Shown piece by piece: positions 2,893 to 35,044 of a stretch of DNA of 64,000 nt. This DNA comes from Bacilli bacterium (GTDB taxonomy: Bacteria; Bacillota_I; Bacilli_A; RF39; JBKDZI01), in assembly GCA_047971215.1 (NCBI GenBank), contig JBKDZI010000025.1:8704-72703 (forward strand), given 5' to 3'. Numbering within the stretch: position 1 is the first letter of the stretch; each line of letters opens with the position of its first letter. Both the position numbers and the translations under genes were made by a program. The notes under the pieces were generated by a model that was given only the letters and a program-made list of their open reading frames with translations, did not search any database and had not been told where the DNA came from.

Positions 2893-2944
2893 AAATTAAT
2901 ACTTGTATTTTTGTGAGATAATGTTATAATTGTATTAAATATTT

Positions 2945-2985
2945 GCTTTCTTAGCTCATTTGGTAGAGCAATTGACTCTTAATCA
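2945..2985 (+). pseudogene. Truncated tRNA-Lys 5'-half copy (acceptor 5' strand through anticodon loop, no 3' half)
   Basis: GCTTTCTTAGCTCATTTGGTAGAGCAATTGACTCTTAATCA matches the 5' 40 nt of the intact tRNA-Lys at 3306, including the spliced CTCTTAATC junction. No T-arm or acceptor 3' strand follows. Confidence 0.6.
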
Positions 2986-3120
2986 TAAGGTCTAAACTCT
3001 ACTATACTTAAACAAACCCTTATAGATAAAGGTTTTAGAGTTAATGAACATAAGTTAAACACTCTATCGTACGTAGAATGTACGTAGAAAAAGAAAAAAA
3101 GCACTAAAAGTGCAATAAAT

Positions 3121-3162
3121 GGGACGTTAGCTCAGTTGGTAGAGCAACTGACTCTTAATCGG
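3121..3162 (+). pseudogene. Truncated tRNA-Lys 5'-half copy
   Basis: GGGACGTTAGCTCAGTTGGTAGAGCAACTGACTCTTAATCGG is near-identical to the 5' exon of the downstream tRNA-Lys plus the first 4 nt of exon 2. It has no 3' half. Confidence 0.65.
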
Positions 3163-3305
3163 CGAGTGTCATTAAGCAAATAAGGTGTAACCCCTTTACT
3201 GATAAGGGTTTATAATATATAGGAATTATACTAATACATGAAATATCGGACTTTTATCGGACAACCGATTAAAAAACATGATTTTTATGTTATAATTCTA
3301 TTCAT

Positions 3306-3647
3306 GGACTGTTAGCTCAGTTGGTAGAGCAACTGACTCTTGGTAATCACACTGGGAGTGTATCATAGTAATATGATAATGAAAATCGAGCAAAAACGGT
3401 AAACGCTGAAATGCTAATACCGTGCTAACTTAATAGATAACGATAAGGCTATTAAGCAGTGTAACGCATAGGAACTGAATAAATATAATGTTCCCACGAA
3501 TGCTTGACAACCTACTTTATAATAAAGGGTTGATAATGTATGCTGAACTATATAGAACAACAATATATAGATGTATCGGATAAAAAGCCAATACGATAAC
3601 AAAATGTAATCAGTGGGTCTGGAGTTCGAGCCTCCAACAGTCCACCA
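3306..3647 (+). tRNA. tRNA-Lys(CUU) interrupted in the anticodon loop by an intron of about 266 nt. The exons are 3306..3340 and 3607..3647, with CCA encoded.
   Basis: The 5' exon is GGACTGT TA GCTC AGTTGGTA GAGC A ACTGA CTCT. The 3' exon is TAA TCAGT GGGTC TGGAG TTCGAGC CTCCA ACAGTCC A CCA. Acceptor, D, anticodon (ACTGA/TCAGT) and T stems all pair. The spliced anticodon loop is CTCTTAA. Confidence 0.8.
3341..3606 (+). ncRNA. Putative group I intron in tRNA-Lys
   Basis: The 5' exon ends in U, which can pair with G in a P1 helix (exon ACUCU with intron GGAGU at intron nt 15-19). The intron ends in G before exon 2. The size of about 266 nt is typical of bacterial tRNA group I introns. No long internal ORF is present; the 62-aa track ORF on the minus strand is spurious. 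Confidence 0.55.
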
Positions 3648-3725
3648 TGAAGTAATTTAAGGGCTACTAGCAATAGTACTCTTTTTTAGTGTTATAATTA
3701 TATTGCTCCGACATTAGTAAATGTC

Positions 3726-4724
3726 TTGAGTGATATTCTAGCATGCGATAATACAATGTCTATCAATTTGTTGAACACATATAAAAATAAAACTGAAGAA
3801 TTATCAATTTTTTTAAATGATTTAAATCGTCAAGGCATAAAATATAATAATTTATTTGTTGATAGTGAACATACTGAAGAAATATTATCATTAATTGAAA
3901 AATTAGTATATGATGGGTTTGTACAAAAATCATACGAAGAAATTTTTAGATGTGATTGTGGCAAAGTTGATATATTAAAACAAGGCATCAATCCTAGTGT
4001 AAGTAAATTGTATTATGAAAAGAATGATGAATATTATTGTAAAGATTGTGGTACTGAATGCAAATCTTTTAAAGAGGAAGTATTAACCCTAGAATTGCCT
4101 GAAGACATTGATGACTCTTTAATAATAGTACCAACCTTCTTAAAAAATGATGCTAATCATTTAAGTAAAACTTTTAAGGGAAGCAAATTACTTGTTTCGA
4201 AACAAAGAGAAACTGGTCATCAAATAACTATTAACGATAAAACCTTTAATATAGATGTCGATTTTATTTGGACTAACTATTTTAGATTATTTGATAATGA
4301 ACAAATTATTATGCTTGCAAGCAATCATCAAACTTATCAAATGTATTTACTGAATTATTTAAACAGAATCATTGGTGGCAATGAAATTTGTTTTGTTGCT
4401 AATCCCTACATGAACCAATCTAAAACTATAAATCCATTGACTGAATACGAAAAAACAACTGACGATATTTACAAAAAATTATTTATTCTATACAACTTGA
4501 AATGGAGAAACAAAAATTGTGATTGGTCTAGAAGTGTAATAGATTACTTGAGTAATACAAGTATTACAAGAAGAAATAATTTGTATAAGGTTATCCAAGA
4601 TTGCGGAAAAAAATTTAACGAAAGCAAAATGCAAACTGATTTATATTTAGAAAGTATTTTACACAAAGGAATAAATATGCAAACAAATATTCCTGAGTCA
4701 AAAAAACTAGTAAAAAGATTATAA
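3726..4724 (+). CDS. Hypothetical protein with paired CxxC zinc-ribbon motifs
   Basis: The frame is 332 aa with CDCGK...CKDCGTEC. No synthetase HIGH or KMSKS motifs are present. It is the first gene of the island downstream of the tRNA. Confidence 0.4.
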   Translation: MSDILACDNTMSINLLNTYKNKTEELSIFLNDLNRQGIKYNNLFVDSEHTEEILSLIEKLVYDGFVQKSYEEIFRCDCGKVDILKQGINPSVSKLYYEKNDEYYCKDCGTECKSFKEEVLTLELPEDIDDSLIIVPTFLKNDANHLSKTFKGSKLLVSKQRETGHQITINDKTFNIDVDFIWTNYFRLFDNEQIIMLASNHQTYQMYLLNYLNRIIGGNEICFVANPYMNQSKTINPLTEYEKTTDDIYKKLFILYNLKWRNKNCDWSRSVIDYLSNTSITRRNNLYKVIQDCGKKFNESKMQTDLYLESILHKGINMQTNIPESKKLVKRL

Positions 4725-4756
4725 TAATAGTAAAATAAATATATGGAGATGATATA

Positions 4757-5443
4757 ATGTATAGTATATTTTTTAGTAAAATAGAACTTGGTATGGATTT
4801 AGTAATAGAACCATTAAAAAAAATCGTTAAACTTAATTCTAAAATTGCAATTTTTCCTTGGGCTTTTCCTATTGAAATAACTTCCAAAGAATTTGAAACT
4901 GATTATTTTCCAGTCAAAGGAAAAAGATACAATAAATATTTAAATGAATTAAAGAAAATTGGAATAGAAGAACAAAATGTGATTGTATGTAATCCTTATA
5001 AAGATACAAGAAAAGAATTACAAGAAATTATTAAAACTAGTGATATTTTATTACTACCTGGTGGTAATCCTGAAATGTTTTTTAAAAAAATATTACACGA
5101 CACAGAATTAATATATGATTTTAAACATTATAAAGGAATTGTAATTGGTGAAAGTGCTGGAACTGAGTTACAATTAAAAAGATATTTTATTACAAGTAAA
5201 AATAATTACTATGAATATTTTGCTGTTTATGATGGATTTGGACTAATAGACAATGAATTTTATATAGATGTCCATACACAAGATAATGAAGAATACCTTA
5301 ATGAATTGAATAAGTATTCAAAGAAAACAAAATCAAATATTTATGCAATATTTGATGATGGTGCTATAATCTATAATAGAAAAACAAATGATTTAGAACA
5401 ATTTGGTAACATTAAAATTGTAGAGCCTAACGAAGAAAGTTAG
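4757..5443 (+). CDS. Peptidase S51 family protein (dipeptidase E / cyanophycinase-like)
   Basis: The LLLPGGNPEMF motif and the GESAGTELQL serine-nucleophile motif (GxSAG) are present. Confidence 0.55.
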   Translation: MYSIFFSKIELGMDLVIEPLKKIVKLNSKIAIFPWAFPIEITSKEFETDYFPVKGKRYNKYLNELKKIGIEEQNVIVCNPYKDTRKELQEIIKTSDILLLPGGNPEMFFKKILHDTELIYDFKHYKGIVIGESAGTELQLKRYFITSKNNYYEYFAVYDGFGLIDNEFYIDVHTQDNEEYLNELNKYSKKTKSNIYAIFDDGAIIYNRKTNDLEQFGNIKIVEPNEES

Positions 5444-5737
5444 GTTTTTCTATGTGTGTGCCTATTAGTCCACTATACTGCTTTTGTTTATTCTAAATAA
5501 TTAGATTTGAAATGATACCCCCTAGTGATTATTTATCATTCAGTCGGACAGTAAATCGGACAAATATTTAATAAAGAGTATTAAAAGATAATAAGTCATG
5601 TTATTGCTATAATAGACAATCGCTAGTATATACTAGTATTTATCACTTTATAATAAACCATAATAACTAACTTTTAAAACTCTTAATCGCTAGGTCGTGT
5701 GTTCTAGTCACACAGGGAGCACCATTAAGAATTTAAG

Positions 5738-5768
5738 ATGGTATCTTTGGATATCATCTTTTTTAATG
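5738..5768 (+). terminator. Rho-independent terminator
   Basis: The hairpin agatggtatc-tttg-gatatcatct is followed by TTTTTT. Confidence 0.5.
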
Positions 5769-5865
5769 ATATAATAGTGATAGAAAACTTCTGTTTATAT
5801 AGTTAAGTTTGTGAGGTGTAAATATAACTAATGATAAAAAGTATATAGATTATATTAATGAAAAA

Positions 5866-8800
5866 ATGGTTTTATTGAATGAAAGCGTTAGGTTAAGTGG
5901 GAAACAAAGTTTATTTGATATAAATATTATAAGCGAAAACTTCTACAGAGATTTATTAGGAATAATTGAAGATGATGAACTTGCGAATGGGAATTTCTTT
6001 GAACAGAATAATGCTGTTTTTGACTTATATAGTGATAAAACAAGGAAATGTTATCAAGTAACTTCAAGAAATGATAAAGCTAAAATTGATGACACTATCG
6101 ACAGTTTTAATAATACGGAGAAGAAACTTTATAATAATTATGATTTACATTTTATAATTATTGGTAAAAAAGTTAATAATCAAAAAATTGTTAAATCTAT
6201 AAATGGTACTCTATTTGATACAAGAAAAATAATAGATTCAGATGATATTTTAACTAAAATTAAAAATTGCAGTATAGAAAAGAAAAAAGAAATATTTGAT
6301 TTTTATAGAAAATATTTTGATAATCAATTAATTAATTTAGATATAAATTTTTTTAGAAACATTTTAGAAGAAAATATTGAAAATTTAGGAGAACGATATA
6401 ATAAACTTATTAATATTTTGACCCCTTTAAATGATTCATTATCTACCTACTTTGTTAATTCAAATGACAAATATAAGTGGCTTAATTCATCAAAATTTTC
6501 TATTGAAAAACTTATTTTAAAAGGTGTTTCGCTAAATACATATAATGACGACTTTATAATTTTTAATAAGGAAGTTAGAAATAATGTCTTTTCAAATATT
6601 ATTATATATTTAAATAATGTTATTAAAAAAACGGATGTATTATTAGAAAGTTTAGATTCGAAAGATGATAAAAATTATTATACAATCAATGAATTAAATA
6701 AACAAAAAGATATTTTATTAGGTATTATTAATAACTTTAGTGTTGCCAATAAGAGTTTGTTTGTATTAAAAGGAAAAGCTGGTATGGGTAAAACACATAC
6801 TGTTACTTATTTTGTAAAAAATGAAATCGAAGAATACAATAAATACTCTTTACTAATTTTAGGACAACATATTAATCAAAGAAGTTCAATAGATTCACAA
6901 ATTATAAATAATTTGAATCTAAATATGACTTTTGATGAGTTGCTTTTTGCTTTGAATGAATATGGATATAAAAAGGATTGTACAGCATCTATAGTTATTG
7001 ACGGAATAAATGAAGGATTGGAATCTTATAATTGGAGAAACTATATTAATGGAATTGTTCAAAAGATTTCCAGATATAACTTTGTAAAAGTATTAATTAG
7101 CATACGTAGTGAATATGTTGATAGCTGTTTGCCAGATGAATTGTTCAATAATGATTTAGTATATACAAAAGAGCATCAAGGATTTAAAGAAAATTTTACT
7201 ACTATAATGACTCAAGTATTTGATTGTTACGACTTAACAATGCCTGTTTTTCCAATCATTGACCATAATTTTTCTAACCCGTTATTTGTTTTTACATTTT
7301 GCAAAATGGTAAAAAAACTAAATAAACCACTAATTATAAAAAAGTATGATGATTTCACTCAGGTCTATATTGATTATATTAATCTCGTTTCAACAAAATT
7401 ATCAGCTTTATTTCATTACGAAAAAGACGATGAAATATTGCAAAACATAATCAAAACATTCATAAACTTTATTTTAGAAAATAAAACTAATTATATTTAT
7501 AAAAAGGATTTACTAAAAATTATAACTGATTCTACTAATGGATATGGTATTGTTGCGAATGATTACCTAATTGCAATGAAAAGTGAAGGATTGATTTACA
7601 AAGATTATGCTTATGTTAAAAATGGAGAAAAAGACGATGCTTATGCTGATGTGATAAGATTTTCATTTGAACGATACGAAAAAATACTGACTGCAACATA
7701 TTTGTTAGATAAGTACAATGATGTTGAAACATTGGAAAGTGACATCAATAACGAAAATAATATTGGGGAATATTTTTCTACATCTAGATATAATATAGAT
7801 TTTGGTTTAATACAGGAGCTTTTTATTATTATACAAAATAGATTTAAAACGGAGATATATGATATTATTGATTTTTCTGGTACGGAGGGTTATTTTCAAG
7901 CCAGATTATCTTAAATTTATATTGAAAGTTTGATATGGAGAAAAGAAATATACGATGGTAAGGAACTAGAAAATTTTAGAACTTTTATTAATGATTTTGT
8001 TGCAAAAGATTTAGAAATATTTGATATATTTATAAAATTATTGATTAAAACATCTTTTATTAAAAATCATCCATTAAATTCTGATTTTTTACATAACTGG
8101 CTTTTTAATAAAAAATTAGGAGAACGAGATTATATTTGGACGATAACTATAAATAACCTATATTTGTATGACAACGAAATATTTGATATGTTGTATGAAT
8201 ATTGTATGACACAGGGAAATAAAAACCTTGATGATGAAACTATCTTGCTATTTTCACAATTATTAGGTTGGTTTTTTACATCTTCTAACAGAAAAATGAG
8301 AGACAAGTTTACAAAATGTCTCGTATCTATACTAGAAAACAAAATACATTTAATGACTAATCTCATCGATATTTTTTTGGAAGTTGATGATATGTATGTG
8401 CTTGAAAGAATATTAGCAGGGTGCTATGGAGAGATATTAAGAAGTGACATATTGGAGCCTAGCAATGTATTTTCCGACTATATTTATAATAGTTTTTTCA
8501 AAGATAAAGTATTAAATCCTAATATCCTAATTCGCCATTATTGTAAATCAATCATTGAATTTGCTACTAGAAATTTTACTATGAATTTTGATATCAATGA
8601 AATATATAATCATAAAAAAAATGAATGGTACAAACAGAAAGAAATTCCTACCTCGGAAGAAATAAAAGAAAAATATGTTTATGACTATAGAGACGAAAAA
8701 ATAAAAAGATATTATTTTTCTTCAAATACAATAGTAAGCTCAATGACTACGGAACATAGTGACCTTGGAATGTATGGAGATTTTGGTAGATATATTTTTG

Positions 8801-9966
8801 AAAGATTAGTAGACCAATGGAAACATCATTTTAGAAAGCAGCAAATATTAGCAAATATCGTAATTAAAAGAGTATTTGATATGGGATATGATGTTGAAAT
8901 GCACGGAATTTATGACTCCACCACTCACAATTATGATAAATATTCTCACAATCCTGAAAGAATCGGTAAAAAATATCAATGGCTTGCTACATACGAATTA
9001 ATTGGAAAATTATGTGATAATTTTAGTATGATAGAATATGTATATAGCGATACTCCAATTGATTTAGAAAAAAATAAGTACCTAGATAGACATTATAATG
9101 AAACAAAGAGTTTAAATAAAATTAATTACGTTATTGTAAATAAATACGATATGAATGATTCATCAATTATTAATATTGATCCATCATTATTTATTACTGT
9201 ACAAGAAAGAAAAGCAATAAAAATTGAATCTAGCAATAGCGATTGAGTTAACCAAGATATAGACGTAAAAGAAGTGATATTCAAAACTATAGATGGTGTA
9301 GAATATATATCACTCGGGAATGTTGAAGAGTGGGTTAATGACGAACATATTGCTGACTGGCACCACCCTTTTAAAAAACGTGTTGCTATAAAATCAATGT
9401 TATTCTTAACTGCAGATGCCAAAAAATTTATGAAAAAAGATTCGAGTATGCTTTGCGATTTAGGATGGAGTTCTCACCTCAATACATATATATTAGAACT
9501 CAGTAAATCAAATTATTATTATGAACAAATTGTGCCTGATGAATATTGTTCTAAGAAGGATGATGACATTGCTTTCTCATTTAGTGAATATTGTTGGGAA
9601 AATGGTGGATACGATGGTTCAATCGATGAAAGTATTAATATCTATTTCCCTTGTTTCTTCTTAATTAAACTCTTAAATTTGAAACAGAAAAATGACTATC
9701 GTTGGTATGACGAAAACGATAACCTTATATGTTTTGATACTTCATTAACAAATGGAATCAACAATTTGTTAATTGAGAAAAATATATTTTTAAAATTTAT
9801 TGAGGATAATGGCTTTTCTTTTGTTTGGGGAATGTATTACGAAAAAGACACAAATAATTGGAGAACTAGCTGGAGAAAAAATGTTACAATAGATAAACTA
9901 GATAAACATGGAAAAATTAGAGAAGTTGTTTTGGAAAAAGAAAGTTATAAATTAAGACAATTTTAA
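5866..9966 (+). pseudogene. NACHT/STAND-like P-loop NTPase, a single 1367-codon reading frame interrupted by two in-frame stop codons (TAA 7912..7914, TGA 9244..9246)
   Basis: The track ORFs 5866..7914, 7930..9246 and 9274..9966 are all in the same frame. Only one stop codon separates each pair, and the latter two lack ATG starts (TTG and GTG are the first codons). Walker A is LKGKAGMGKTHT and Walker B is SIVIDGINEG (hhhhDGxxE, NACHT-like). A roughly 300-aa N-terminal domain and roughly 750 aa of C-terminal helical region are typical of STAND sensors. Confidence 0.5.
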
Positions 9967-10152
9967 AAGCAACTAAATAGTTACAAGATAATAAACAGCT
10001 GATATTGATTTTTATTTTCTATTACATACATTAGCAATTTATTTATCAAGTGTAATAGCCATATGAATTAAAATTAACGTAAAAGATTATATAAACAAGA
10101 AGAATCAAAAATTTTCAATTTATCCATAGAGATATTTAATATTATTATTTTG

Positions 10153-10183
10153 TTGTTTATTATATTTAAAATTGTGATATAAT
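10153..10183 (+). promoter_or_regulatory. Putative sigma-A promoter with extended -10 (TGaTATAAT) upstream of xfp
   Basis: TTGTTT (-35-like) is followed by a 19-nt spacer and TGATATAAT about 25 nt upstream of the ATG. The RBS is AAGGGG. Confidence 0.35.
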
Positions 10184-10207
10184 TTATACAGAATAAGGGG
10201 AATAAAA

Positions 10208-12577
10208 ATGATAGAAGAAATTAATGTTTTATCGTCTAGTGAACTAGACAAAATGGATAAATATTTTAGAGCTGTAAACTATTTATCAGTTGGACAATTG
10301 TATTTGCTTGATAATCCACTTCTTAGAGAACCTTTAAGAATAGAACATATTAAGCCATATGTTGTTGGACACTGGGGAACAATACCAGGACAAAACTTTG
10401 TTTATATGCATTTAAATAGAGTTATTAAAAAAGATAACTTGAATATGTTATTTATATCAGGGCCAGGCCATGGAGGACAAGTTGCTGTTACTAATTCATA
10501 TTTTGATGGTAGTTATAGCGAAATTTATCCACATATTACTCAAGATATGACTGGTCTTAAAAAATTGTGTAAACAATTTAGTTTTCCAGGAGGTATTTCA
10601 AGTCATGCAGCACCTGAAACTCCAGGTTCTATTAATGAAGGTGGAGAACTTGGTTATAGTCTTTCTCATGCTTATGGTGCAGTGCTCGATAATCCTGATT
10701 TAATCGTTGCTTGTGTTATAGGAGATGGAGAAGCAGAAACAGGTCCACTTGCTGGTTCTTGGTTTGCTAATAAATTAATTAATCCTGAAACCGATGGTGC
10801 TGTTTTACCAATTTTACATTTAAATGAATTTAAAATTGCTAATCCTACAATCCTTTCAAGAATAGGCGATAGTGAATTAATTAGTTATTTTAAAGGTAAT
10901 GGTTATATGCCATTTATTGTTGATTATTCAACATCAACTAATATACATGAAACTATGGCAAAAGCTATGGATACTTGTATAACTTTAATTAAAACTATAT
11001 GGAAAAATTCTCGTGAAAACAATTCAGATAAAAGACCAACATGGCCTATGATTATACTTAAAACACCAAAAGGGTGGACAGGACCTAAATTTGTTGATGA
11101 AAAAGAAATTGAAGGAACTTTTAGAGCCCATCAAGTTCCAATTCAAGTAGATAAAGATCATATTGAAAATTTAGAACTTCTTGAAGATTGGCTTAGAAGT
11201 TATAATATAGAAAATCTTTTTGATGATAATGGACGTTTGATAGAAGAACTTAGAGAACTTACTCCAAAAGATGATTTTAGAATTGGATTAAATAAGCATG
11301 CTAATGGTGGTGGTTTATTAAAACCTTTAATAAAACCTAATGTTAGTCATTATGCTGTGGAAATTGAAGCTCCAGGAAATACAATTGCTGAGGATATGAA
11401 AATTCTTGGTAATTATATTAAAGATTTAATTTCATTAAATGAAAAAACTTCTAATTATAGAATTTTTGGTCCAGATGAACTTGCTTCAAATAGACTTTAT
11501 GCAACTCTTGATGTTACTAAAAGACAATGGATGGGAGATATTAAACTTAACGATGATGGATTAGCTAAAAATGGTAGAATTATTGATTCAGTTTTATCTG
11601 AACATTTGTGTCAAGGTCTTTTAGAAGGATATCTTTTAACTGGTAGACATGGATTTATGCATAGTTATGAAGCATTTATTAGAATAATTGATTCTATGAC
11701 AAGTCAACATGCAAAGTGGCTTAAAGTTACTTCCCAGTTGCCATGGCGTCATAAAATTTCATCTTTAAATTATATTTTATCTTCTCATATTTGGCAACAA
11801 GATCATAATGGGTATACTCATCAAAATCCTGGTTTTATAAATCATGTACTTTCATTAAAACCTGAATTTACTAGAGTTTATTTACCAGCTGATGCAAATA
11901 GCTTATTATGTTGTTATGATAAAACTATAAATACTAAAAATTTAATTAATGTTATTGTGGCATCAAAACATTCACGTCCACAATGGCTTAATATGAAAGA
12001 AGCTATTAAACATTGTAATAAAGGAATTGGTATTTGGGATTTTGCAGGAAATGCAACTGGTGAGAAAGTTGATTTAGTTATGGCTTGTGCAGGTGATACG
12101 CCAACTCTTGAAACAATTGCTGCTGTTAAAATTTTAAATGAAAAATTACCAGAACTTAAAGTAAGGGTAATAAATGTTGTAGATTTAATGACACTTCATT
12201 CAAAAGAAGATCATCCAAATGGACTTTATGATTTTGAATATAATTCTTTATTTACTAAAGATAAACCTATTGTATTTGCTTTTCATGGATATAGAGAAGT
12301 TATTAAACAATTAACTTATTCTAGAGTAAATAAAAATATGAATATTCATGGATATTTAGAAGAGGGTACTATCACAACTGGATTTGATATGAGAGTGCAA
12401 AATAAATTAGATAGATTTAATTTAATTATATCAGCACTTGAAAAATTAAATTTGGATGATAATAAAGCATCTTTATTATATGATTGGTGTAAAAATAAAT
12501 TAATAGAACATAAAGAATACATTCATGAAATAGGTATTGATATGCCAGAAATTAAAAATTGGAAATTTAATGATTAA
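10208..12577 (+). CDS. xfp: Phosphoketolase (xylulose-5-phosphate/fructose-6-phosphate phosphoketolase)
   Basis: The protein is 789 aa. The signature EGGELGYSLSHAYGAVLDNPDLIVACVIGDGEAETG and the TPP-binding motifs typical of the XFP family are present. Confidence 0.9.
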   Translation: MIEEINVLSSSELDKMDKYFRAVNYLSVGQLYLLDNPLLREPLRIEHIKPYVVGHWGTIPGQNFVYMHLNRVIKKDNLNMLFISGPGHGGQVAVTNSYFDGSYSEIYPHITQDMTGLKKLCKQFSFPGGISSHAAPETPGSINEGGELGYSLSHAYGAVLDNPDLIVACVIGDGEAETGPLAGSWFANKLINPETDGAVLPILHLNEFKIANPTILSRIGDSELISYFKGNGYMPFIVDYSTSTNIHETMAKAMDTCITLIKTIWKNSRENNSDKRPTWPMIILKTPKGWTGPKFVDEKEIEGTFRAHQVPIQVDKDHIENLELLEDWLRSYNIENLFDDNGRLIEELRELTPKDDFRIGLNKHANGGGLLKPLIKPNVSHYAVEIEAPGNTIAEDMKILGNYIKDLISLNEKTSNYRIFGPDELASNRLYATLDVTKRQWMGDIKLNDDGLAKNGRIIDSVLSEHLCQGLLEGYLLTGRHGFMHSYEAFIRIIDSMTSQHAKWLKVTSQLPWRHKISSLNYILSSHIWQQDHNGYTHQNPGFINHVLSLKPEFTRVYLPADANSLLCCYDKTINTKNLINVIVASKHSRPQWLNMKEAIKHCNKGIGIWDFAGNATGEKVDLVMACAGDTPTLETIAAVKILNEKLPELKVRVINVVDLMTLHSKEDHPNGLYDFEYNSLFTKDKPIVFAFHGYREVIKQLTYSRVNKNMNIHGYLEEGTITTGFDMRVQNKLDRFNLIISALEKLNLDDNKASLLYDWCKNKLIEHKEYIHEIGIDMPEIKNWKFND

Positions 12578-12721
12578 TAAAAACTTTTAAGCTACAAAAA
12601 ATCTAATATTTAATGTTATAAATGAACTAACTAGAGAAAATTTGCCTATTTTTGTTAATCATGCTGTAACTGTAATAAATAATTATTCTTTAGACAAACC
12701 TAAAAAAATTAAATAATCTAA

Positions 12722-12752
12722 AAACCTCATTTGTAAAAAATGAGGTTTTTTA
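12722..12752. terminator. Bidirectional rho-independent terminator between xfp and the bacteriocin operon
   Basis: The perfect hairpin aaaacctcat-ttgtaaaaa-atgaggtttt has A/T runs on both sides. Confidence 0.65.
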
Positions 12753-12758
12753 TATAAT

Positions 12759-12911
12759 TTAAGACTGATATTTACACACTTTTTCATTATATGAGTAACG
12801 CATATAAGTTCCTGTATATGTTCCTATATCATATAGAATAGAAATTGCAATTAAAGCTATTGGTATAAAAATAATAGGAAGAAATTTTTTATAACCTTCT
12901 ATATTTTGCAT
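12759..12911 (-). CDS. Small membrane protein, candidate bacteriocin immunity protein
   Basis: The 50-aa frame MQNIEGYKKFLPIIFIPIALIAISILYDIGTYTGTY... carries one TM helix. Its start overlaps the last codons of the upstream GG-leader peptide gene. It ends immediately before the terminator. Confidence 0.35.
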   Translation of the reverse strand: MQNIEGYKKFLPIIFIPIALIAISILYDIGTYTGTYMRYSYNEKVCKYQS

Positions 12912-13066
12912 AGTTTTTTTGCACTTACAAATCTAATCGCTGAACCAAGACCACGTCCAACTTCATAAATTTTGCCTATTCCTCTAATTAACGCATTTAA
13001 CATAGTACCTGATATTCCAGCACCACCATTTATTTGTTTTAATTCATAAGTTGTATATTCAACCAT
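12899..13066 (-). CDS. Double-glycine-leader bacteriocin precursor (class II-like)
   Basis: The 55-aa frame is MVEYTTYELKQINGG | AGISGTMLNALIRGIGKIYEVGRGLGSAIRFVSAKKLCKI. The leader carries the E-L-x-x-I-x-G-G consensus. A strong AAAAAGGAGGAAAA RBS lies 7 nt upstream. It is located immediately downstream of a C39-peptidase ABC exporter. Confidence 0.6.
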   Translation of the reverse strand: MVEYTTYELKQINGGAGISGTMLNALIRGIGKIYEVGRGLGSAIRFVSAKKLCKI

Positions 13067-13078
13067 TTTTCCTCCTTT

Positions 13079-13238
13079 TTAATTATTACATTTATTTGGG
13101 TTTGTATATCCTGAAAATACACCAATTAAAAATATTACTATACCGGAAATAATTATTGCACCACCAGCAGAAATACCACCACCATTAACGTTTAATAGCT
13201 CATTTTTATTTAATTCTCTCTTTTTAAACTCCTTTCAT
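13079..13238 (-). pseudogene. Second double-glycine-leader peptide gene with an apparent 1-nt frameshift at the start codon
   Basis: The frame ...KEFKKRELNKNELLNVNGGG | ISAGGAIIISGIVIFLIGVFSGYTNPNKCNN has a classic GG leader and a hydrophobic core. The only ATG (13236..13238, preceded by no better site) is offset by one nucleotide from this frame (ATG AAA G|GAG TTT). It is either a frameshifted gene or a sequencing error. Confidence 0.4.
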
Positions 13239-13336
13239 AAAATTTATTAAATGATTTATAATAAAATCATCATCTTTATTAAAATTTAAATAAATTACAT
13301 TATTCTCATGTTTTTGATTTTTATTTAGTTTAAATT

Positions 13337-13666
13337 TTAATAATATTTTTTATAATTAATACCTTGTTCATCTATATATAAATTTTCGTCAATACTATCA
13401 ATATAATAACTTAGTTTTTTTCCATTAATATATACTTTATTGTCTTTTGTAATATACTCTATATCCTTTGAATTTGTAATAACACTAACTATATAATCGT
13501 TTCCACTTTTTTCTACTATTGCATATGTTTTATAAAATGTTTGATACTTGACTTTAAATAAAGTACATATAAATATTAAGCTAATTAATACTATAAAAAT
13601 AGAGTAAAAGTATAATTTATTTGTTTTTTCATTAAAGTCAATTTCATTTATCATTATAATCTCCAA
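13337..13666 (-). CDS. Small single-TM protein, possibly a truncated HlyD/ComB-like bacteriocin secretion accessory protein
   Basis: The 109-aa protein has an N-terminal TM helix followed by a beta-rich segment. Its position between the ABC exporter and the peptides matches the ComB/LcnD slot, but it is far too short for an intact accessory protein. Confidence 0.3.
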   Translation of the reverse strand: MEIIMINEIDFNEKTNKLYFYSIFIVLISLIFICTLFKVKYQTFYKTYAIVEKSGNDYIVSVITNSKDIEYITKDNKVYINGKKLSYYIDSIDENLYIDEQGINYKKYY

Positions 13667-14435
13667 AATCTAAACATTCATTAAATAGATCACTATTATT
13701 ACTTCTATGAGAAACAATAAGTATAGTCTTATCTTTAAATTCTTTAAATATAAATTTAAGAATTTTTCTTTCTAATTTTATGTCAATTTCACTCAAAGCT
13801 TCATCAATTATTAGAATATCAAAATTTTTATAAATACTTCTAGCAAGTATTATTCTTTGTTTTTCACCACCTGATAAATTAAATCCATTTTCTTCTATTA
13901 ACATATTTAAACCCAAATTAGATTTGTCATAAATTGTATTAATGTCAAATTTTTCACAAATATTAATAACTTTTTCTAAATCTTTTTCTTCATCAATAGA
14001 AATATTATTATAAATTGTATCATTAAACAAAAGCTCATTTTGTGAAACATATCTAATATTTGATCTAATACAATTAATACTATAATTATTTAAATCTATA
14101 TCATCTATAAATATTTTGTTATTATCAACTTCATAAAATTTGCACAATAATTTTAAAAATGTACTTTTGCCACTTCCAGAATTACCCTTGATTAAAACTT
14201 TAGACCCTGATTTAATATTTAAATTTAGATTTTTTAAAATTGGATTGTGAATATGGGAAAAATTTAAATTGTTAACCTTTATATTTCCTATTAGATTTTT
14301 ATTTATTTTATTTTCATCACTCATAGATTCATTTTTTATAGAATATACTTCATTAATTCTTTTAAATGAAATATCATATTTTTTATAAATTAAATTAAAA
14401 TCTATTATATGTTTAATCGGATCAATTAAATGCAT
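13644..14435 (-). CDS. ABC transporter ATP-binding domain, the C-terminal part of a split bacteriocin-processing exporter
   Basis: Walker A is GNSGSGKST, the ABC signature is LSGGEKQR, and Walker B is ILIIDEA. It overlaps the upstream TMD ORF by 10 nt in a different frame. Confidence 0.7.
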   Translation of the reverse strand: MHLIDPIKHIIDFNLIYKKYDISFKRINEVYSIKNESMSDENKINKNLIGNIKVNNLNFSHIHNPILKNLNLNIKSGSKVLIKGNSGSGKSTFLKLLCKFYEVDNNKIFIDDIDLNNYSINCIRSNIRYVSQNELLFNDTIYNNISIDEEKDLEKVINICEKFDINTIYDKSNLGLNMLIEENGFNLSGGEKQRIILARSIYKNFDILIIDEALSEIDIKLERKILKFIFKEFKDKTILIVSHRSNNSDLFNECLDFGDYNDK

Positions 14436-15709
14436 AATAATATAATTAACACTAAATCACCTAAAGTAAATTTATTTTTCAAAATAAGTAAACTTCCTAA
14501 GAAAATTAAAATATAAATAATAAAATTTTCTATAAATGATTTAATCAAATTTATAAATGAAATTTTTTTTGAAAAATTTAGAGATTTATTTGTGAAATTA
14601 CTATATAAAAAATTAAATTTATTATTTAAGTTTTTTTCTATATTCATACCTTTTATAGTATCAAAAGAGTTTATACTTTCAATAATATTACTACTTGTCT
14701 TTTCTTCTAAAGTTATAAGATTATAATATTTTTTATATAGACGATTATTAGAAATTAAAGTAAATATTATATAAAAACTAAGTATTATAATTACAATTAT
14801 TAAAAGCAAACTACTTAAAAAATAGAATATACATAAACTACCAATTAATAGAATTAAATCTACAGAAAAGGTTACTATTAATGTAAGTATTGTATCTTTT
14901 AAAACTGAAATATCACGAATTCTTTCTACAAATTCTCCTGCAGTTTTGCTTTTAAAATAATTGTATGGGAGAGTAATAATATGATTATAAATACTAAGCA
15001 TTAATCTTAAGTTAATTTTTTCACCTAAAATTACAAGAAGTCTATATCTTATAAATTCAGTTATACTTTTTAAAATAATAACAACTAAAAATAAAATAGA
15101 TATATTGACTATATTTTCTAAATAACTATTTTGAATATTATCCATAATATATTTCAAATAATAAGTATTTAAAATACTAAAAAATGTAAAAATTATTGAA
15201 ATTATCACTATTAAAAATATAAATGGCTTATATTGAAAGATCAAATCAAATAAAAATTTAGATGTACTTGTTTCATCAATTTTAATTAATTTTTGGGAAA
15301 CATCTATTAAAATTAAAACTTCATTATATATTTTTCTAAATTCATCTAATTTATACTTAATCATACCTTTAGCTGGATCCATAATTTCAATATATTTCTT
15401 ATTAATTTTATAAATTACAACAAAATGCTTATAAGATTTATCAATTGTTACATTAGCAATAGAAGGAAGTTTATGTTTTTCATTTACTAATTGTTCAAAA
15501 GAACATTTATATCCTATAGAATTAATATTAAGTTTTTTTAATGTATTTACAATATCAAAAGCAGTAGTACCATGTTTATTAGTATTTGTCATAAGTTTTA
15601 ACTGAGCAGAGGGATAATTTCCATTATAATATCTTAAAACAGATAAAATACAACTGACTCCACAATCTTTATATTCCTTTTGAAGTACTACATGTTTTTT
15701 CATTTTCAT
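14426..15709 (-). CDS. Peptidase C39 domain plus ABC transmembrane domain, the N-terminal part of a split ComA/LagD-type bacteriocin exporter
   Basis: The N-terminus QKEYKDCGVSCILSVLRYY carries the C39 catalytic Cys motif. About 6 TM helices follow. It would be fused to the NBD in an intact exporter. Confidence 0.7.
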   Translation of the reverse strand: MKMKKHVVLQKEYKDCGVSCILSVLRYYNGNYPSAQLKLMTNTNKHGTTAFDIVNTLKKLNINSIGYKCSFEQLVNEKHKLPSIANVTIDKSYKHFVVIYKINKKYIEIMDPAKGMIKYKLDEFRKIYNEVLILIDVSQKLIKIDETSTSKFLFDLIFQYKPFIFLIVIISIIFTFFSILNTYYLKYIMDNIQNSYLENIVNISILFLVVIILKSITEFIRYRLLVILGEKINLRLMLSIYNHIITLPYNYFKSKTAGEFVERIRDISVLKDTILTLIVTFSVDLILLIGSLCIFYFLSSLLLIIVIIILSFYIIFTLISNNRLYKKYYNLITLEEKTSSNIIESINSFDTIKGMNIEKNLNNKFNFLYSNFTNKSLNFSKKISFINLIKSFIENFIIYILIFLGSLLILKNKFTLGDLVLIILLCI

Positions 15710-15778
15710 TACCTCCTATGTATATTCTACATAAAAGATTTAAAAATCCCTTTAAAAAAAACACTTTTTTCAAAGTGC

Positions 15779-16024
15779 TTAATTTACAAATTTATCTATA
15801 TCTTTTGGAACATTATCATTTACTATAGTTTCAATGATTTTTTTTCTTTTTTCTTCAGATACTTCTTTACCAGTCATCACAGAAATATCATTAATAACTT
15901 CATTTAATGTTGATTCATCTTTAAAATCACCATTAGATAACTTATTAGCTAAATTTAATATTGTGTTTTTATCAACACTAGTTTTTTGTTCAATCTTTTT
16001 GAAAAATTTATCTGAAAATCCCAT
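15779..16024 (-). CDS. Small conserved protein (possibly SpoVIF/YjcC-like)
   Basis: The 81-aa frame MGFSDKFFKKIEQKTSVDKNTILNLANKLSNGDFKDESTLNEVINDIS... resembles small sporulation-associated proteins by eye only. It lies immediately downstream of der. Confidence 0.25.
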   Translation of the reverse strand: MGFSDKFFKKIEQKTSVDKNTILNLANKLSNGDFKDESTLNEVINDISVMTGKEVSEEKRKKIIETIVNDNVPKDIDKFVN

Positions 16025-16070
16025 ACATTCCCCCTTAATTCATTATATGAATTATAGGTAAAAATGTGTA

Positions 16071-17369
16071 TTAGTCATTTTTGTTTTTAAATTTAATAAC
16101 AATTTTAGTACCTTCAAAATCAAAATTTTCTCTAAGTTTATTAATTAAATAACGTTCATAAGAAAAATGAACTAATTTTTTATCGTTTACAGAAAAAGTA
16201 AAAGTAGGAGGCTTAATTCCTGTTTGACTTGAAAAATAAATTTTTAATCTACGACCTTTATAAGAAGGTGGGGGAGTTAAAAGTTGAGCTTCTACAATAA
16301 CTTCATTTAAAACACTAGTTTTAATTCGTTTTGAATAATTTTCATATGTCTTAATAATTTCGGGCATTAAAGTATGAATTCTTTTTTTAGTTAAACTAGA
16401 TAAAAACACTACTGGAACATAAGTTAAAAATTGAAACTCAGCTCTAATTAATTTTTCATATTCTTTAGTACTTTTATTTTTAATTAAATCCCATTTATTA
16501 CAAACTATAACAAGTGCTTTATTATTTTCAAGCGCGTAACCTGCTATATGTTTATCCTGTTCACAAATTCCTTCATTAATGTCTAAGACTAAGACACAAA
16601 TATCAGCATTTTCAATAGCACGAATACTTCTTAAATAACTAAATTTTTCAGTCGATTCATAAATACGACCTTTTTTTCTTAATCCTGCTGTATCAATTGA
16701 AATAAACTTTTGTTTCTCATAATTAAATGGAACATCAACAGAATCGCGAGTAGTACCTGCAATATCAGAAACAATAACTCTATTTTCATTTAAAATAGCA
16801 TTAATTAAACTTGATTTACCAGCATTAGGTCTACCAATTAAGGCAAATCTAATTGTATCATCATCATTATTTTTTTCTTTTTCTAAAATATTTTTAGTTA
16901 TTTCATCTAAAAGTCCACTAATATTAATGCTATGTTCAGAACTTATTGCAACAAGTCTATCAAATCCAAGTTCATAAAAATTATACATATACATTTCATC
17001 ATTAGGATTATCAAGTTTATTTACAGCGACAATTACTTCTTTACCACTTTTTAATAACATATCACGACAATAGTAATCATTAGCATTTAAATCTGCTTTA
17101 CCATCTATAAGAAAAACAATAATGTCAGCTTCATTTATAGCAAGTTCCACTTGAAGTTTAATATCAGCATTAAAATCACCTTGTCCAAGATCTATACCTC
17201 CGGTGTCAACTAAATGAAATTGTTTATTTTTATGCTCACATTTAGTGTAAATTCTATCCCTTGTTACGCCTGGTTTATTTTCAACTATAGAAATCCTTTT
17301 TTTAGCAATTTTATTAAATAGGGTACTTTTACCAACATTAGGTCTACCTACAATAGCAACAGTTTTCAT
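16071..17369 (-). CDS. der: Ribosome biogenesis GTPase Der (EngA), tandem GTPase domains plus a KH-like domain
   Basis: Two G-domains are present: GRPNVGKSTLFN...DTGG and GRPNAGKSSLIN...DTAG, each with NKxD motifs (NKLD, NKWD). Confidence 0.9.
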   Translation of the reverse strand: MKTVAIVGRPNVGKSTLFNKIAKKRISIVENKPGVTRDRIYTKCEHKNKQFHLVDTGGIDLGQGDFNADIKLQVELAINEADIIVFLIDGKADLNANDYYCRDMLLKSGKEVIVAVNKLDNPNDEMYMYNFYELGFDRLVAISSEHSINISGLLDEITKNILEKEKNNDDDTIRFALIGRPNAGKSSLINAILNENRVIVSDIAGTTRDSVDVPFNYEKQKFISIDTAGLRKKGRIYESTEKFSYLRSIRAIENADICVLVLDINEGICEQDKHIAGYALENNKALVIVCNKWDLIKNKSTKEYEKLIRAEFQFLTYVPVVFLSSLTKKRIHTLMPEIIKTYENYSKRIKTSVLNEVIVEAQLLTPPPSYKGRRLKIYFSSQTGIKPPTFTFSVNDKKLVHFSYERYLINKLRENFDFEGTKIVIKFKNKND

Positions 17370-17378
17370 ATTATCTCC

Positions 17379-17966
17379 TTATTTTTTTAACTCTTCTTCA
17401 ATTATTTCATGAACTTTTTCTTTACCTTCTTTTGTTACGGAAGAAAATAATATATATTTATCTTCATAAGCAAGATCAAAACTTTCTAAAATAATACGTT
17501 CATATTTATGTTTTACAGTTTTTCCAATTTTATCAACTTTAGTTAAAATTAATACAATAGGAAGGTTATAATGTTTTAAGAAATTATACATTAATAAATC
17601 ATCTTTAGAAGGCTTATGTCTAACATCAACTATTAAAAAAATCTTTTTTAGTTGCTTTCTTGTTTCAAGATATTCCTCAATCATTTTTCCAAATTTTTCT
17701 CTTTGAGATTTACTTACACTTGCATAACCATAACCTGGAACATCTACAAAATTAAATTGTTCATTAACGTTATAAAAATTTAATGTCCTAGTTTTACCCG
17801 GTTTACTAGAAGTATGAGCATAATTTTTTCTATTAATTATTGTATTTATAAAACTACTTTTTCCTACATTACTTCGACCTAAAAGTAAAAATTCTGGAAT
17901 ATATTCACTTGGATATTGACTACTTCTAACAGCACTAATTGTTAAATTTACAGTTTTTATAATCAT
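17379..17966 (-). CDS. engB: Ribosome biogenesis GTP-binding protein YsxC/EngB
   Basis: G1 is GRSNVGKSSFIN, G3 is DVPGYGY and G4 is TKVDK. The start is placed at MIIKTVN with an AGGAGG RBS. The track ORF is extended upstream through the RBS. Confidence 0.85.
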   Translation of the reverse strand: MIIKTVNLTISAVRSSQYPSEYIPEFLLLGRSNVGKSSFINTIINRKNYAHTSSKPGKTRTLNFYNVNEQFNFVDVPGYGYASVSKSQREKFGKMIEEYLETRKQLKKIFLIVDVRHKPSKDDLLMYNFLKHYNLPIVLILTKVDKIGKTVKHKYERIILESFDLAYEDKYILFSSVTKEGKEKVHEIIEEELKK

Positions 17967-18253
17967 AACTTCCTCCTTTGTAATTACATAATAGATTATA
18001 CCATAAAAAAAGAAGCATATAGCTACTTTTATTAATTCTAAGCACAATATTTTAAAGTTTTTGTTTTTTCTAATGGAAGAGTAGTAGTATTTTTTAGTGT
18101 CGTTTCTAATCCAAACTTTTTAGCAATCATCTGTTCTTTTTCTTCATTACTTTTTTCTTCATTTAATAAAGAAATATAATTAGTTTTATTTTTCTTAATT
18201 TTATTAACATTTACTAAAAGATTTGATAAAATAAATTTTATTTCAGTAGTATT

Positions 18254-18541
18254 TTAAAAATATTCTATATTTTTATAATTACTAACTTGATATATTGAAG
18301 GAAGAGAAAATACATTATTTATATCATATATTTCAATAATTACTGTTTTTTCTTTAGAAGTTTTTTCAAGTACATATACTAAATTATCTTCAACATCACG
18401 AACAAAATGAGTTTGAATTTGATTTGTTCTTGGATTTTGTAGTAACTTTGGATCTGTTAAACTATAACCATTAACAAATATTTGACCTAATAAATAACCA
18501 TTTAAATCTTTATATTTTTTAAATTCAACTATTTTTTTCAT
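18254..18541 (-). CDS. Hypothetical protein
   Basis: This is a 95-aa ORF with no recognisable motifs. It lies adjacent to the tRNA-Cys locus. Confidence 0.25.
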   Translation of the reverse strand: MKKIVEFKKYKDLNGYLLGQIFVNGYSLTDPKLLQNPRTNQIQTHFVRDVEDNLVYVLEKTSKEKTVIIEIYDINNVFSLPSIYQVSNYKNIEYF

Positions 18542-18987: not shown

Positions 18988-19062
18988 TGGAGGGCCCGAT
19001 AGGATTTGAACCTACGCGTCGAAGAGTTGCAGTCTTCTGCCTTACCACTTGGCTACGGACCC
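18988..19062 (-). tRNA. tRNA-Cys(GCA)
   Basis: The reverse complement is GGGTCCG TA GCCAAGTGGTAAGGC A GAAGA CTGCAAC TCTTC GACGC GTAGG TTCAAAT CCTAT CGGGCCC T CCA. All four stems pair. Confidence 0.9.
19026..19055. repeat. 30-bp direct repeat (tRNA-Cys D-arm/anticodon region), left copy; the partner is at 28443..28472 (29/30 identical)
   Basis: GTTGCAGTCTTCTGCCTTACCACTTGGCTA versus GTTGCAGTCTTGTGCCTTACCACTTGGCTA. The pair brackets a roughly 9.4-kb block that carries integrase and recombinase genes. Confidence 0.7.
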
Positions 19063-34192: not shown

Positions 34193-35044
34193 GTGATATT
34201 TATGGAAAGACAATTTGAAAATGATAATAAATTAAAAGGATATCTTTCGAATCAAGCCAAAAAAAACAATATATCTTCAAACTATGCGTATACATATTTT
34301 TTTCTGCGTTGTTTTTTAGAAATATTAAATAAAAATAATGATGATTTAATAATTACTGGCAGTTTTTCCAATTTTGCTCATACTAAAAAAATATATAGAC
34401 CTATTACAGATTTGGATTTACAAACAAAAATAGAAAATCTTGATAATTTTGATAATACGGTTTCTAATTTAAATGATAATAATTTAGGAGTTAATTTTAA
34501 TGTTAAACAACGTTTTGTAACTGAAAATGGTACTATAAATTATAGAATTTTATGTAATTTTGGAAAGTTAGAAAGAATTATTAAATCTGATATTAAGATT
34601 GTAAGAAGTGCCCCATTTTCAAAAGTAATAATTCCTAAATTGTTTGATGCTGATTCGCAGATGCTTTTTAATGTTACAGAATTTGAAAAACAAATTGCAG
34701 ATAAATTGTGTATAATAATAAGAAAATTATATACTTATAAAAATTTAAACAATGAATACAAACGTTATAAAGATATATATGACATAAGTAATATAGTAAA
34801 GAATAATAAAGAAAAAATAGATTTTGACAAAGTTTTATTTTATGTAAAAAGTAGATTACAAAATGATGATTTAATTAAAGATCTTAGTAAACAAGATATT
34901 TTAAATTTACTAGACATATTAAACCAAAAATTTTTAGAAAATAATGAGAAATCTTATAATGAAGATGCTAAAAAGTTTCAATTTATGAATAAAATTGATA
35001 ATAATTTGAAAGAAGTAAAACAATCGATCAAACGAAGTTTATAG
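34193..35044 (+). CDS. Nucleotidyltransferase AbiEii/AbiGii toxin family protein (orphan)
   Basis: The length is about 283 aa. The N-terminal segment LIITGSFSNFAHTKKIYRPITDLDLQ fits the GS...R.T.DxD nucleotidyltransferase motif of DUF1814/AbiEii. No AbiEi partner is detected. Confidence 0.5.
   Translation: MIFMERQFENDNKLKGYLSNQAKKNNISSNYAYTYFFLRCFLEILNKNNDDLIITGSFSNFAHTKKIYRPITDLDLQTKIENLDNFDNTVSNLNDNNLGVNFNVKQRFVTENGTINYRILCNFGKLERIIKSDIKIVRSAPFSKVIIPKLFDADSQMLFNVTEFEKQIADKLCIIIRKLYTYKNLNNEYKRYKDIYDISNIVKNNKEKIDFDKVLFYVKSRLQNDDLIKDLSKQDILNLLDILNQKFLENNEKSYNEDAKKFQFMNKIDNNLKEVKQSIKRSL

Follow-up and report, generated by a model that had tools for sequence, protein, structure and literature searches.

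Among the characterised Avs2 antiphage proteins, KpAvs2 of Klebsiella pneumoniae carries an Mrr nuclease that degrades DNA indiscriminately upon sensing phage proteins (PMC11564622), and EcAvs2 has been described with a helical extension between effector and ATPase (PMC13601566); the SMEK domain, in turn, is treated as the nuclease domain of the partners of short prokaryotic Argonautes (pAgos) (PMC10810196). These systems are the closest described counterparts of a locus in a 64,000-nucleotide stretch of contig JBKDZI010000025.1 (hereafter the window, GC content about 24%), which belongs to the metagenome-assembled genome (MAG) of a Bacilli bacterium. As judged from its sequence, the locus (5866-9966, plus strand) is one Avs2 (AVAST type 2) gene, that is, a new but decayed member of a known family. 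Its best explanation, held with high probability, is a single Avs2 antiphage gene that recently turned into a pseudogene and is most likely non-functional.

Translation of 5866-9966 yields a single frame of 1367 codons whose only in-frame stops, apart from the terminal TAA at 9964-9966, are codon 683 (TAA at 7912) and codon 1127 (TGA at 9244), and no frameshift occurs anywhere in its 4.1 kb. The first-pass annotation, made from the letters alone, had described one large protein in three same-frame pieces separated by just these two stops, and this description is borne out by the translation, by collinear Avs2 matches of the pieces and by intact homologues of 1373 amino acids. The open reading frames (ORFs) listed for the frame are 5866..7914 (682 aa, ATG), 7930..9246 (438 aa, TTG) and 9274..9966 (230 aa, GTG). 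At the column of the first stop, the intact homologues P0001 and P0002 have Asp (GAT), the outgroup homologue P0003 has Asn (AAT) and EcAvs2 has Glu in the alignment, and the immediate precursor codon is not readable from these relatives. The column of the second stop holds Trp in P0001, P0002, P0003 and EcAvs2, encoded by TGG in the homologous loci L003, L004 and L005, and the lesion reads as a single G-to-A change, TGG to TGA. An alternative code in which TGA specifies Trp can be discarded: TGA and TAA had been taken for normal stops of the neighbouring genes, and TGA indeed terminates 8 of the 45 large ORFs of the window, including addA- and murE-like genes, while Trp is encoded by TGG 65 times and long housekeeping ORFs are unbroken.

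The three pieces match PADLOC model PDLC02162 (Avs2) at positions 161-695, 703-1110 and 1140-1350 of 1379, hence collinearly, and NCBIfam NF041813 (Avs2) is matched by them in the same order. Their PADLOC Avs2 E-values are 4e-82, 6.7e-89 and 6.7e-23, the last for an alignment to profile positions 1260-1462 of 1504, and the NCBIfam Avs2 match of this C-terminal piece spans 1161-1293 of 1317. Moreover, a family profile built from four sequences aligns with the cryo-electron microscopy chain of EcAvs2 (9o4e_A) at E=3.7e-149, as does the single sequence at 4.6e-100. A search of 5.8 billion proteins returned 35 homologues, none of which is split and all but two of which exceed 1190 aa; P0001 and P0002 (both 1373 aa) cover 100% of the concatenated pieces at 59% and 58% identity, more distant full-length Avs2-like proteins were also among them, and nothing closer than 59% was found. 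The more distant homologues lie in other defence islands or in viral contigs, the latter containing only distant Avs2 relatives of 24-30% identity. The first-pass assignment to NACHT/STAND, bNACHT/Avs-like sensors stands for a STAND NTPase of the Avs kind and falls for NACHT and bNACHT: Pfam NACHT (PF05729) gives no match at E<=1, the only hits being weak ones to NPHP3_N (0.0029) and AAA_22 (0.012), and no bNACHT model is among the PADLOC matches, all strong ones being Avs2 or the Aga_REase effector model.

The tripartite architecture of Avs2, consisting of an effector, a central STAND NTPase and a C-terminal tetratricopeptide repeat (TPR) plus beta-rich sensor, is present along the frame. Its N-terminal 300 residues, previously set down as an unknown domain, are made up of two parts, a SMEK/Mrr-like nuclease domain and, behind it, the helical extension of Avs2. 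Pfam SMEK_N (PF21941) is matched by residues 3-133 (3.2e-25, 89.1 bits, cutoff 27), and the domain also matches PADLOC Aga_REase, the model of a pAgo-associated restriction endonuclease (6e-16), and PDB 26bh_D, the Mrr domain of the Kordia jejudonensis Mrr-APAZ pAgo system (3.2e-16 by profile, 3.4e-10 by single sequence). An AlphaFold2 model of the first piece, built from only 5 sequences (mean predicted local distance difference test score, pLDDT, 71), places helices at 24-34 and 71-82 and strands at 40-42, 52-56, 61-66 and 93-98, with pLDDT of about 75-86; this alpha-beta-beta-beta-alpha-beta order over residues 24-98 is consistent with a PD-(D/E)xK core, for which the family-invariant E24, D53, Q64 and K73 are candidate catalytic residues. 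The extension that follows is modelled entirely as helices (pLDDT 80-93), and the 9o4e profile match begins at query position 160 and chain residue 153. As to the NTPase, the P-loop and Walker B motif that had been recognised at the outset (GKAGMGKT, aa 303-310; IVIDGINE, aa 376-383) are invariant in the family and align with GKAGIGKS and VFIDAINE of EcAvs2, the invariant residues of the module being G303, G306, G308, K309, D379, N382 and E383. Foldseek with the whole 682-aa model retrieved ORC/Cdc6 AAA+ proteins and Avs4 (8dgf), that is, only generic AAA+/ORC structures and Avs4, and no match for the N-terminal domain. Within the sensor region, codon 1025 (8938-8940) encodes Lys in the window and Arg in 8/8 other aligned homologues, at a position that aligns with R1132, a bridging-ATP contact of EcAvs2; this Lys may be drift after inactivation.

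Two features at the 5′ end place the true beginning of the coding frame upstream of the listed ATG, at about 5824-5836 by comparison with the relatives. P0001 and P0002 start 13 codons ahead of a conserved "EKM" methionine, which in the window is ATG 5866, and adding the upstream codons extends the match to NCBIfam SMEK_N (NF033859) from profile positions 13-96 to 1-96 and raises it from 68.6 to 77.6 bits, against a cutoff of 30. No ATG, GTG or TTG occurs in frame between a TGA at 5812 and 5866, and none of ATG 5866, TTG 7930 and GTG 9274 is preceded by a Shine-Dalgarno (SD) sequence; the codon at the appropriate distance from the SD sequence shared with the intact homologues, at 5824, is ATA, where the homologues have ATG. 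Because the SD sequence and the −10 element are conserved, ATA stands where ATG is expected and the upstream codons complete the SMEK_N profile, a third lesion is probable, namely loss of the start codon by a G-to-A change (ATG to ATA). The uninterrupted translatable ORF of an Avs2 gene is therefore missing here, given the TAA at 7912, the TGA at 9244 and the lack of a start codon behind the SD sequence.

The gene lies directly 3′ of a tRNA gene, as expected of an island, and its GC content at third codon positions (18.8%, compared with 11.4% in 45 other ORFs of the window) likewise agrees with an island origin. The tRNA sequence in question is the orphan 3′ part of a tRNA-Lys(CUU), unique in the window and situated about 140 bp upstream of ATG 5866 and 100 bp upstream of 5824, which can be aligned with the complete tRNA-Lys that precedes the intact homologues in L003 and L004 (called by ARAGORN at L003 2323-2398). 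Across the window and these two loci, tRNA-Lys(CUU), terminator with T-run, −10 element and SD sequence can all be aligned, and homology of the three loci stops about 12 nt past the stop codon. The inverted repeat and hairpins reported earlier at 5690..5768 do exist, and their actual identity is the T-arm of this tRNA (5697-5713) and an intrinsic terminator (5735-5760 and its T-run); a terminator scan found one such element where shuffled sequences gave 0.0. Downstream of the gene in L004 come a tyrosine integrase, helix-turn-helix genes and an AIPR abortive-infection gene. Because the same tRNA-Lys junction precedes both close intact homologues, one of them with an integrase, the window gene can be regarded as cargo of an island targeting tRNA-Lys(CUU), of which the window would hold a remnant. 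No integrase is found between 5444 and 13644 of the window, no far-end attachment repeat was found in L004, and housekeeping genes flank the locus (def, ftsW/rodA and hpf on its upstream side; xfp phosphoketolase, a C39-peptidase ATP-binding cassette (ABC) transporter, spoVIF and der on its downstream side). That the gene sits in a tRNA-adjacent island had been proposed before; the island at a tRNA holds, but the relevant tRNA is this uncalled tRNA-Lys(CUU) fragment and not the tRNA-Cys at 18988-19062, the only one called by ARAGORN with default settings or by Rfam, which is ruled out as the island tRNA by its distance of 9 kb, its location on the other strand and the intervening xfp, ABC transporter and der.

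The inactivation appears recent, as the first-pass annotation had surmised from two clean nonsense codons, since 88/90 family-invariant positions (identical in eight other members) are kept, no frameshift has accumulated and the segments past the stops have not diverged further from the outgroup than those ahead of them. Intact members keep invariant positions in the same range in a leave-one-out comparison, and identity to the outgroup P0003 is 31.2% for the window gene, 33.2% for P0001 and 32.8% for P0002. With about 6% of random substitutions in the gene sequence making a stop, the presence of two suggests at most a few dozen neutral substitutions.

Several observations weigh against a recent and inactive Avs2 pseudogene in a decayed island, or against parts of that account. 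The NF041813 score of the concatenate (576.7 bits) is under the equivalog cutoff of 1000; because intact P0001 (618.5 bits) and P0003 (564.1 bits) also fall under it, P0004 (1543 bits) being over, the low score would reflect a divergent SMEK-bearing Avs2 subclade rather than decay, with membership at the level of the family and not of the equivalog. Where EcAvs2 has the bridging-ATP residues T1128, R1130 and R1132, the window gene has a gap, Tyr and Lys, which bears on terminase sensing as presumed from the family. The window contains no second copy of the tRNA 3′ end and no far-end direct repeat, leaving the far end of the island unmarked, and the probable start loss is based on three homologous loci and SD spacing. 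The gene is so well kept that continuing selection on some product is conceivable from its sequence. Finally, the sole other assembly that includes the locus comes from one run, possibly of the same sample and sharing reads with the MAG, and a minority intact allele is conceivable.

It is on this last point that the best-surviving rival leans, a reading that attributes the stops to errors of sequencing or assembly, or to calls of minor alleles, and holds the true gene to be intact and functional; the derivation of the window from a MAG and a gene that is otherwise intact, with its invariant residues in place and its frame unshifted, speak in its favour. Nevertheless, it is improbable. A Logan contig built independently from run SRR30067258, the only match to an exact look-up of the first piece, covers window positions 3312-18351 and has both stops, the ATA and the same three ORFs, but is distinguished from the window by 8 differences, one of them a synonymous C/A at 8364 within the gene; with the stops present in this second assembly too, an isolated assembly error is unlikely. 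It would moreover be hard to credit that consensus substitution errors had struck three separate functional sites in a single gene, and the lesions all end in A/T, TGG to TGA and the probable ATG to ATA being G-to-A changes, which is the direction expected at 24% GC. A scan of genome contigs for an intact conspecific allele returned nothing from the window's own species, and the nearest Xfp relative (80% identity, L026) has neither synteny nor Avs2.

Still less probable is a live locus, in which translation restarts at TTG 7930 and GTG 9274 and yields a separate product from each ORF, or ribosomes read past the stops, giving a multi-subunit Avs2 of nuclease-NTPase, TPR and C-terminal sensor chains, or in which the 682-aa nuclease-NTPase has, without its sensor, a regulatory or toxin-like role of its own. 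Both stops do lie near module junctions (NTPase/TPR and TPR/C-terminal sensor), the restart candidates are 16 and 28 nt past them, the downstream segments show no excess divergence, and at a TGA in place of Trp low-level near-cognate read-through would restore the original residue. However, the second stop stands at a conserved Trp and not in a linker, TAA is not a leaky stop, neither restart codon has an SD sequence and a restart at 7930 would cut the conserved YIESLIWRK motif in its middle; in addition, 0/35 homologues are split, nearly all being long single chains, and the upstream start codon is apparently lost as well. That three distinct genes of different families share the frame by chance, as three ORFs annotated by gene callers might suggest, is refuted to near certainty by the fact that the pieces match consecutive segments of the same Avs2 models and of single-chain homologues, pieces 2 and 3 having no Pfam family of their own.

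A recently inactivated Avs2 gene thus remains the preferred reading, and the family literature (PMC13601566, PMC11564622) indicates how its intact ancestor of about 1380 aa would have worked, namely in the manner of those characterised Avs2 proteins whose effector is of the Mrr type. A phage protein, in the canonical case the ATPase domain of the large terminase, would be bound by the TPR region and beta-rich sensor at the C-terminus, whereupon the ATP-loaded STAND NTPase would tetramerise and bring the N-terminal SMEK/Mrr-like nuclease domains together, so that DNA would be degraded indiscriminately, the infection aborted and the cell killed. The gene would have arrived as cargo of an island integrated at tRNA-Lys(CUU), which then decayed: the integrase would have gone, the tRNA been split by a later 2.7-kb insertion, TGG turned into TGA, a TAA arisen at the NTPase/TPR junction and the ATG probably been lost. 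The most that might still be made, from an ATG without ribosome-binding site, is a 682-aa product that has no sensor and lacks the N-terminus of its nuclease domain.

Table 1. Coordinates of the interrupted Avs2 gene, its upstream junction and the 2.7-kb insertion (window positions).
Feature	Position	Strand	Description
Decayed 5′ part of the split tRNA-Lys(CUU)	2945..2984	+	Behind TGTTATAAT promoter (2919-2936)
Second orphan tRNA-Lys 5′ half	3122-3160	+	
Apparently complete replacement tRNA-Lys(CUU)	3306..3647	+	On the 2.7-kb insertion; 266-nt interruption in anticodon loop
ORF of 332 aa	3726-4724	+	On the 2.7-kb insertion; no Pfam/PHROGs match
S51-peptidase-like ORF			On the 2.7-kb insertion
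Orphan tRNA-Lys(CUU) 3′ part	5681..5724	+	Anticodon loop CTCTTAATC, variable region, T-arm GTGTG-TTCTAGT-CACAC, acceptor AGGGAGC, ACCA
Intrinsic terminator of the tRNA	5735..5768	+	11-bp stem, loop of 4, T-run
Promoter-like site of the Avs2 gene	5748..5775	+	TGGATA-16-TATAAT, extended −10 TG; 10/12 matches; −10 conserved in L003 and L004
Shine-Dalgarno sequence	5810..5817	+	GTGAGGTG; shared with intact homologues in L003 and L004
In-frame 5′ coding remnant	5824..5865	+	ITNDKKYIDYINEK; homologous to N-terminus of intact relatives; no ATG/GTG/TTG
SMEK/Mrr-like PD-(D/E)xK nuclease effector domain	5866..6345	+	aa 1-160
Helical extension between effector and ATPase	6346..6735	+	aa about 161-290
STAND NTPase module	6736..7911	+	aa about 291-682; phmmer alignment to 9o4e_A residues 330-713
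Walker A	6772-6795	+	GKAGMGKT
Walker B	6988-7017	+	SIVIDGINEG
Premature stop 1	7912-7914	+	TAA, codon 683; directly precedes conserved YIESLIWRK motif
Alpha-helical TPR-like sensor region	7915..9243	+	aa 684-1126; PADLOC Avs2 6.7e-89; aligns with 9o4e ~714-1215
Premature stop 2	9244-9246	+	TGA, codon 1127; in place of conserved Trp
C-terminal sensor domain and natural stop	9247..9966	+	aa 1128-1366; TAA 9964-9966

Upstream of the gene, the remains of tRNA-Lys genes (Table 1) form a mosaic. The most upstream piece is a sub-threshold Rfam tRNA match (25.1 bits, E=0.01) which, joined to 5689-5724, folds as tRNA-Lys(ctt) in ARAGORN; as read from these sequences, it and the orphan 3′ part are the two ends of an older tRNA-Lys(CUU) gene split by the later 2.7-kb insertion. 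Taken together, 2919-3160 and 5681-5724 are a mosaic from repeated events at one tRNA-Lys site. The replacement gene carried by the insertion is missed by Rfam and by default ARAGORN, and is found by ARAGORN when introns are allowed, its joined exons giving a perfect 76-nt tRNA-Lys(ctt). The 266-nt insert that interrupts it has boundaries that can be set as U|...G; it pairs with the 5′ exon in a P1-like hairpin, and its folding is better than that of shuffled sequences (z=−3.8). It has no Rfam match even at E<=10, Intron_gpI included, so that a group I intron is rejected, and two exact-junction scans of metagenome contigs returned nothing; the insert may be an unrecognised intron type or the leftover of an integrated element. 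Neither of the two ORFs of the insertion matches PHROGs.

Two kinds of repeated element accompany these tRNA pieces. An extended −10 promoter-like element, T[AT][AGT]TGTTATAATT, occurs in three copies on the plus strand (2919-2936, 3285-3302 and 3687-3704), two of them ahead of tRNA-Lys 5′ halves and the third ahead of the ORF at 3726-4724. Paired direct repeats of the form TCGGAC(A)-N5-TCGGACA are located on the plus strand at 3247-3265, ahead of the interrupted tRNA-Lys and its promoter, and at 5545-5563, ahead of the orphan 3′ part; proteins may bind them as arm-type or operator sites. The tRNA-Lys mosaic, with its unclassified 266-nt interruption, is a more unusual feature than the Avs2 pseudogene itself.

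Elsewhere in the window, a bacteriocin-type ABC transporter (13644-15709, minus strand) is present as two ORFs with a 10-nt overlap, one for the C39 peptidase and membrane domain (427 aa) and one for the ATPase (263 aa). A transporter of this kind is normally a single chain of about 700 aa, and the Logan assembly has the same arrangement, which is either a frameshift pseudogene or a natural split. An ORF at 34193-35044 (plus strand) has an AbiEii nucleotidyltransferase toxin domain (type IV toxin-antitoxin or abortive infection) and is a second defence-related gene of the window. Between 39000 and 46000, GC content falls to 16-19% across genes with PD-(D/E)xK (PDDEXK_1) and UvrD helicase domains, AddAB/RexAB-like, an extreme value for housekeeping genes.

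For annotation, the three "hypothetical" ORFs are best joined into a single Avs2 pseudogene, and counts of defence systems in this MAG should not score the locus as active. Existing knowledge of Avs2 is unchanged by it; were the three chains functional after all, they would constitute a natural multi-subunit form of a pattern-recognition receptor that is normally a single chain. As a pseudogene, the locus offers a clean, datable case of rapid decay of defence cargo after its island was immobilised, by AT-directed point mutations and not by frameshifts, and it shows a SMEK-Avs2 cassette found repeatedly at tRNA-Lys(CUU). In a distant relative, a defence island with a type I restriction enzyme and a DEAD helicase (L005 8920-19039) contains two SMEK-Avs2 paralogues in tandem (1354 and 1339 aa) with an IS110-family transposase between them.

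In summary, the architecture of the window gene is of the common Avs2 type, and its likeness to described systems differs from part to part. With KpAvs2 it shares an N-terminal Mrr-type PD-(D/E)xK nuclease, a central STAND NTPase and a long Avs2-type sensor (PMC11564622), and by analogy its intact form would be expected to share the sequence of phage-protein binding, oligomerisation and indiscriminate DNA degradation; unlike KpAvs2, it has two stops, no start codon and a nuclease of the SMEK_N subfamily, stems from a Bacilli MAG of 24% GC and gives no hint of the accessory genes that the KpAvs2 operon contains. With EcAvs2 (9o4e, PMC13601566) the helical extension, NTPase, TPR region and C-terminal sensor are homologous, and Walker A, Walker B and an ERIGKKYQW motif are kept, whereas the bridging-ATP contacts are not conserved and the EcAvs2 effector is uncharacterised and probably non-enzymatic, that of the window gene being a SMEK/Mrr nuclease. 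The Mrr/SMEK nuclease domain of the Kordia jejudonensis SMEK/Mrr-APAZ short pAgo partner (26bh, PMC10810196) is homologous to the N-terminal 160 residues, but is fused there to APAZ and works with an Argonaute, while here it is the effector of a STAND sensor. Closest of all are P0001 and P0002, uncharacterised metagenomic proteins with the same SMEK-Avs2 architecture and the same position 3′ of tRNA-Lys(CUU), with terminator, promoter and SD sequence in common; they differ in being uninterrupted, with an ATG behind the SD sequence and, in the case of P0002, an integrase that follows.

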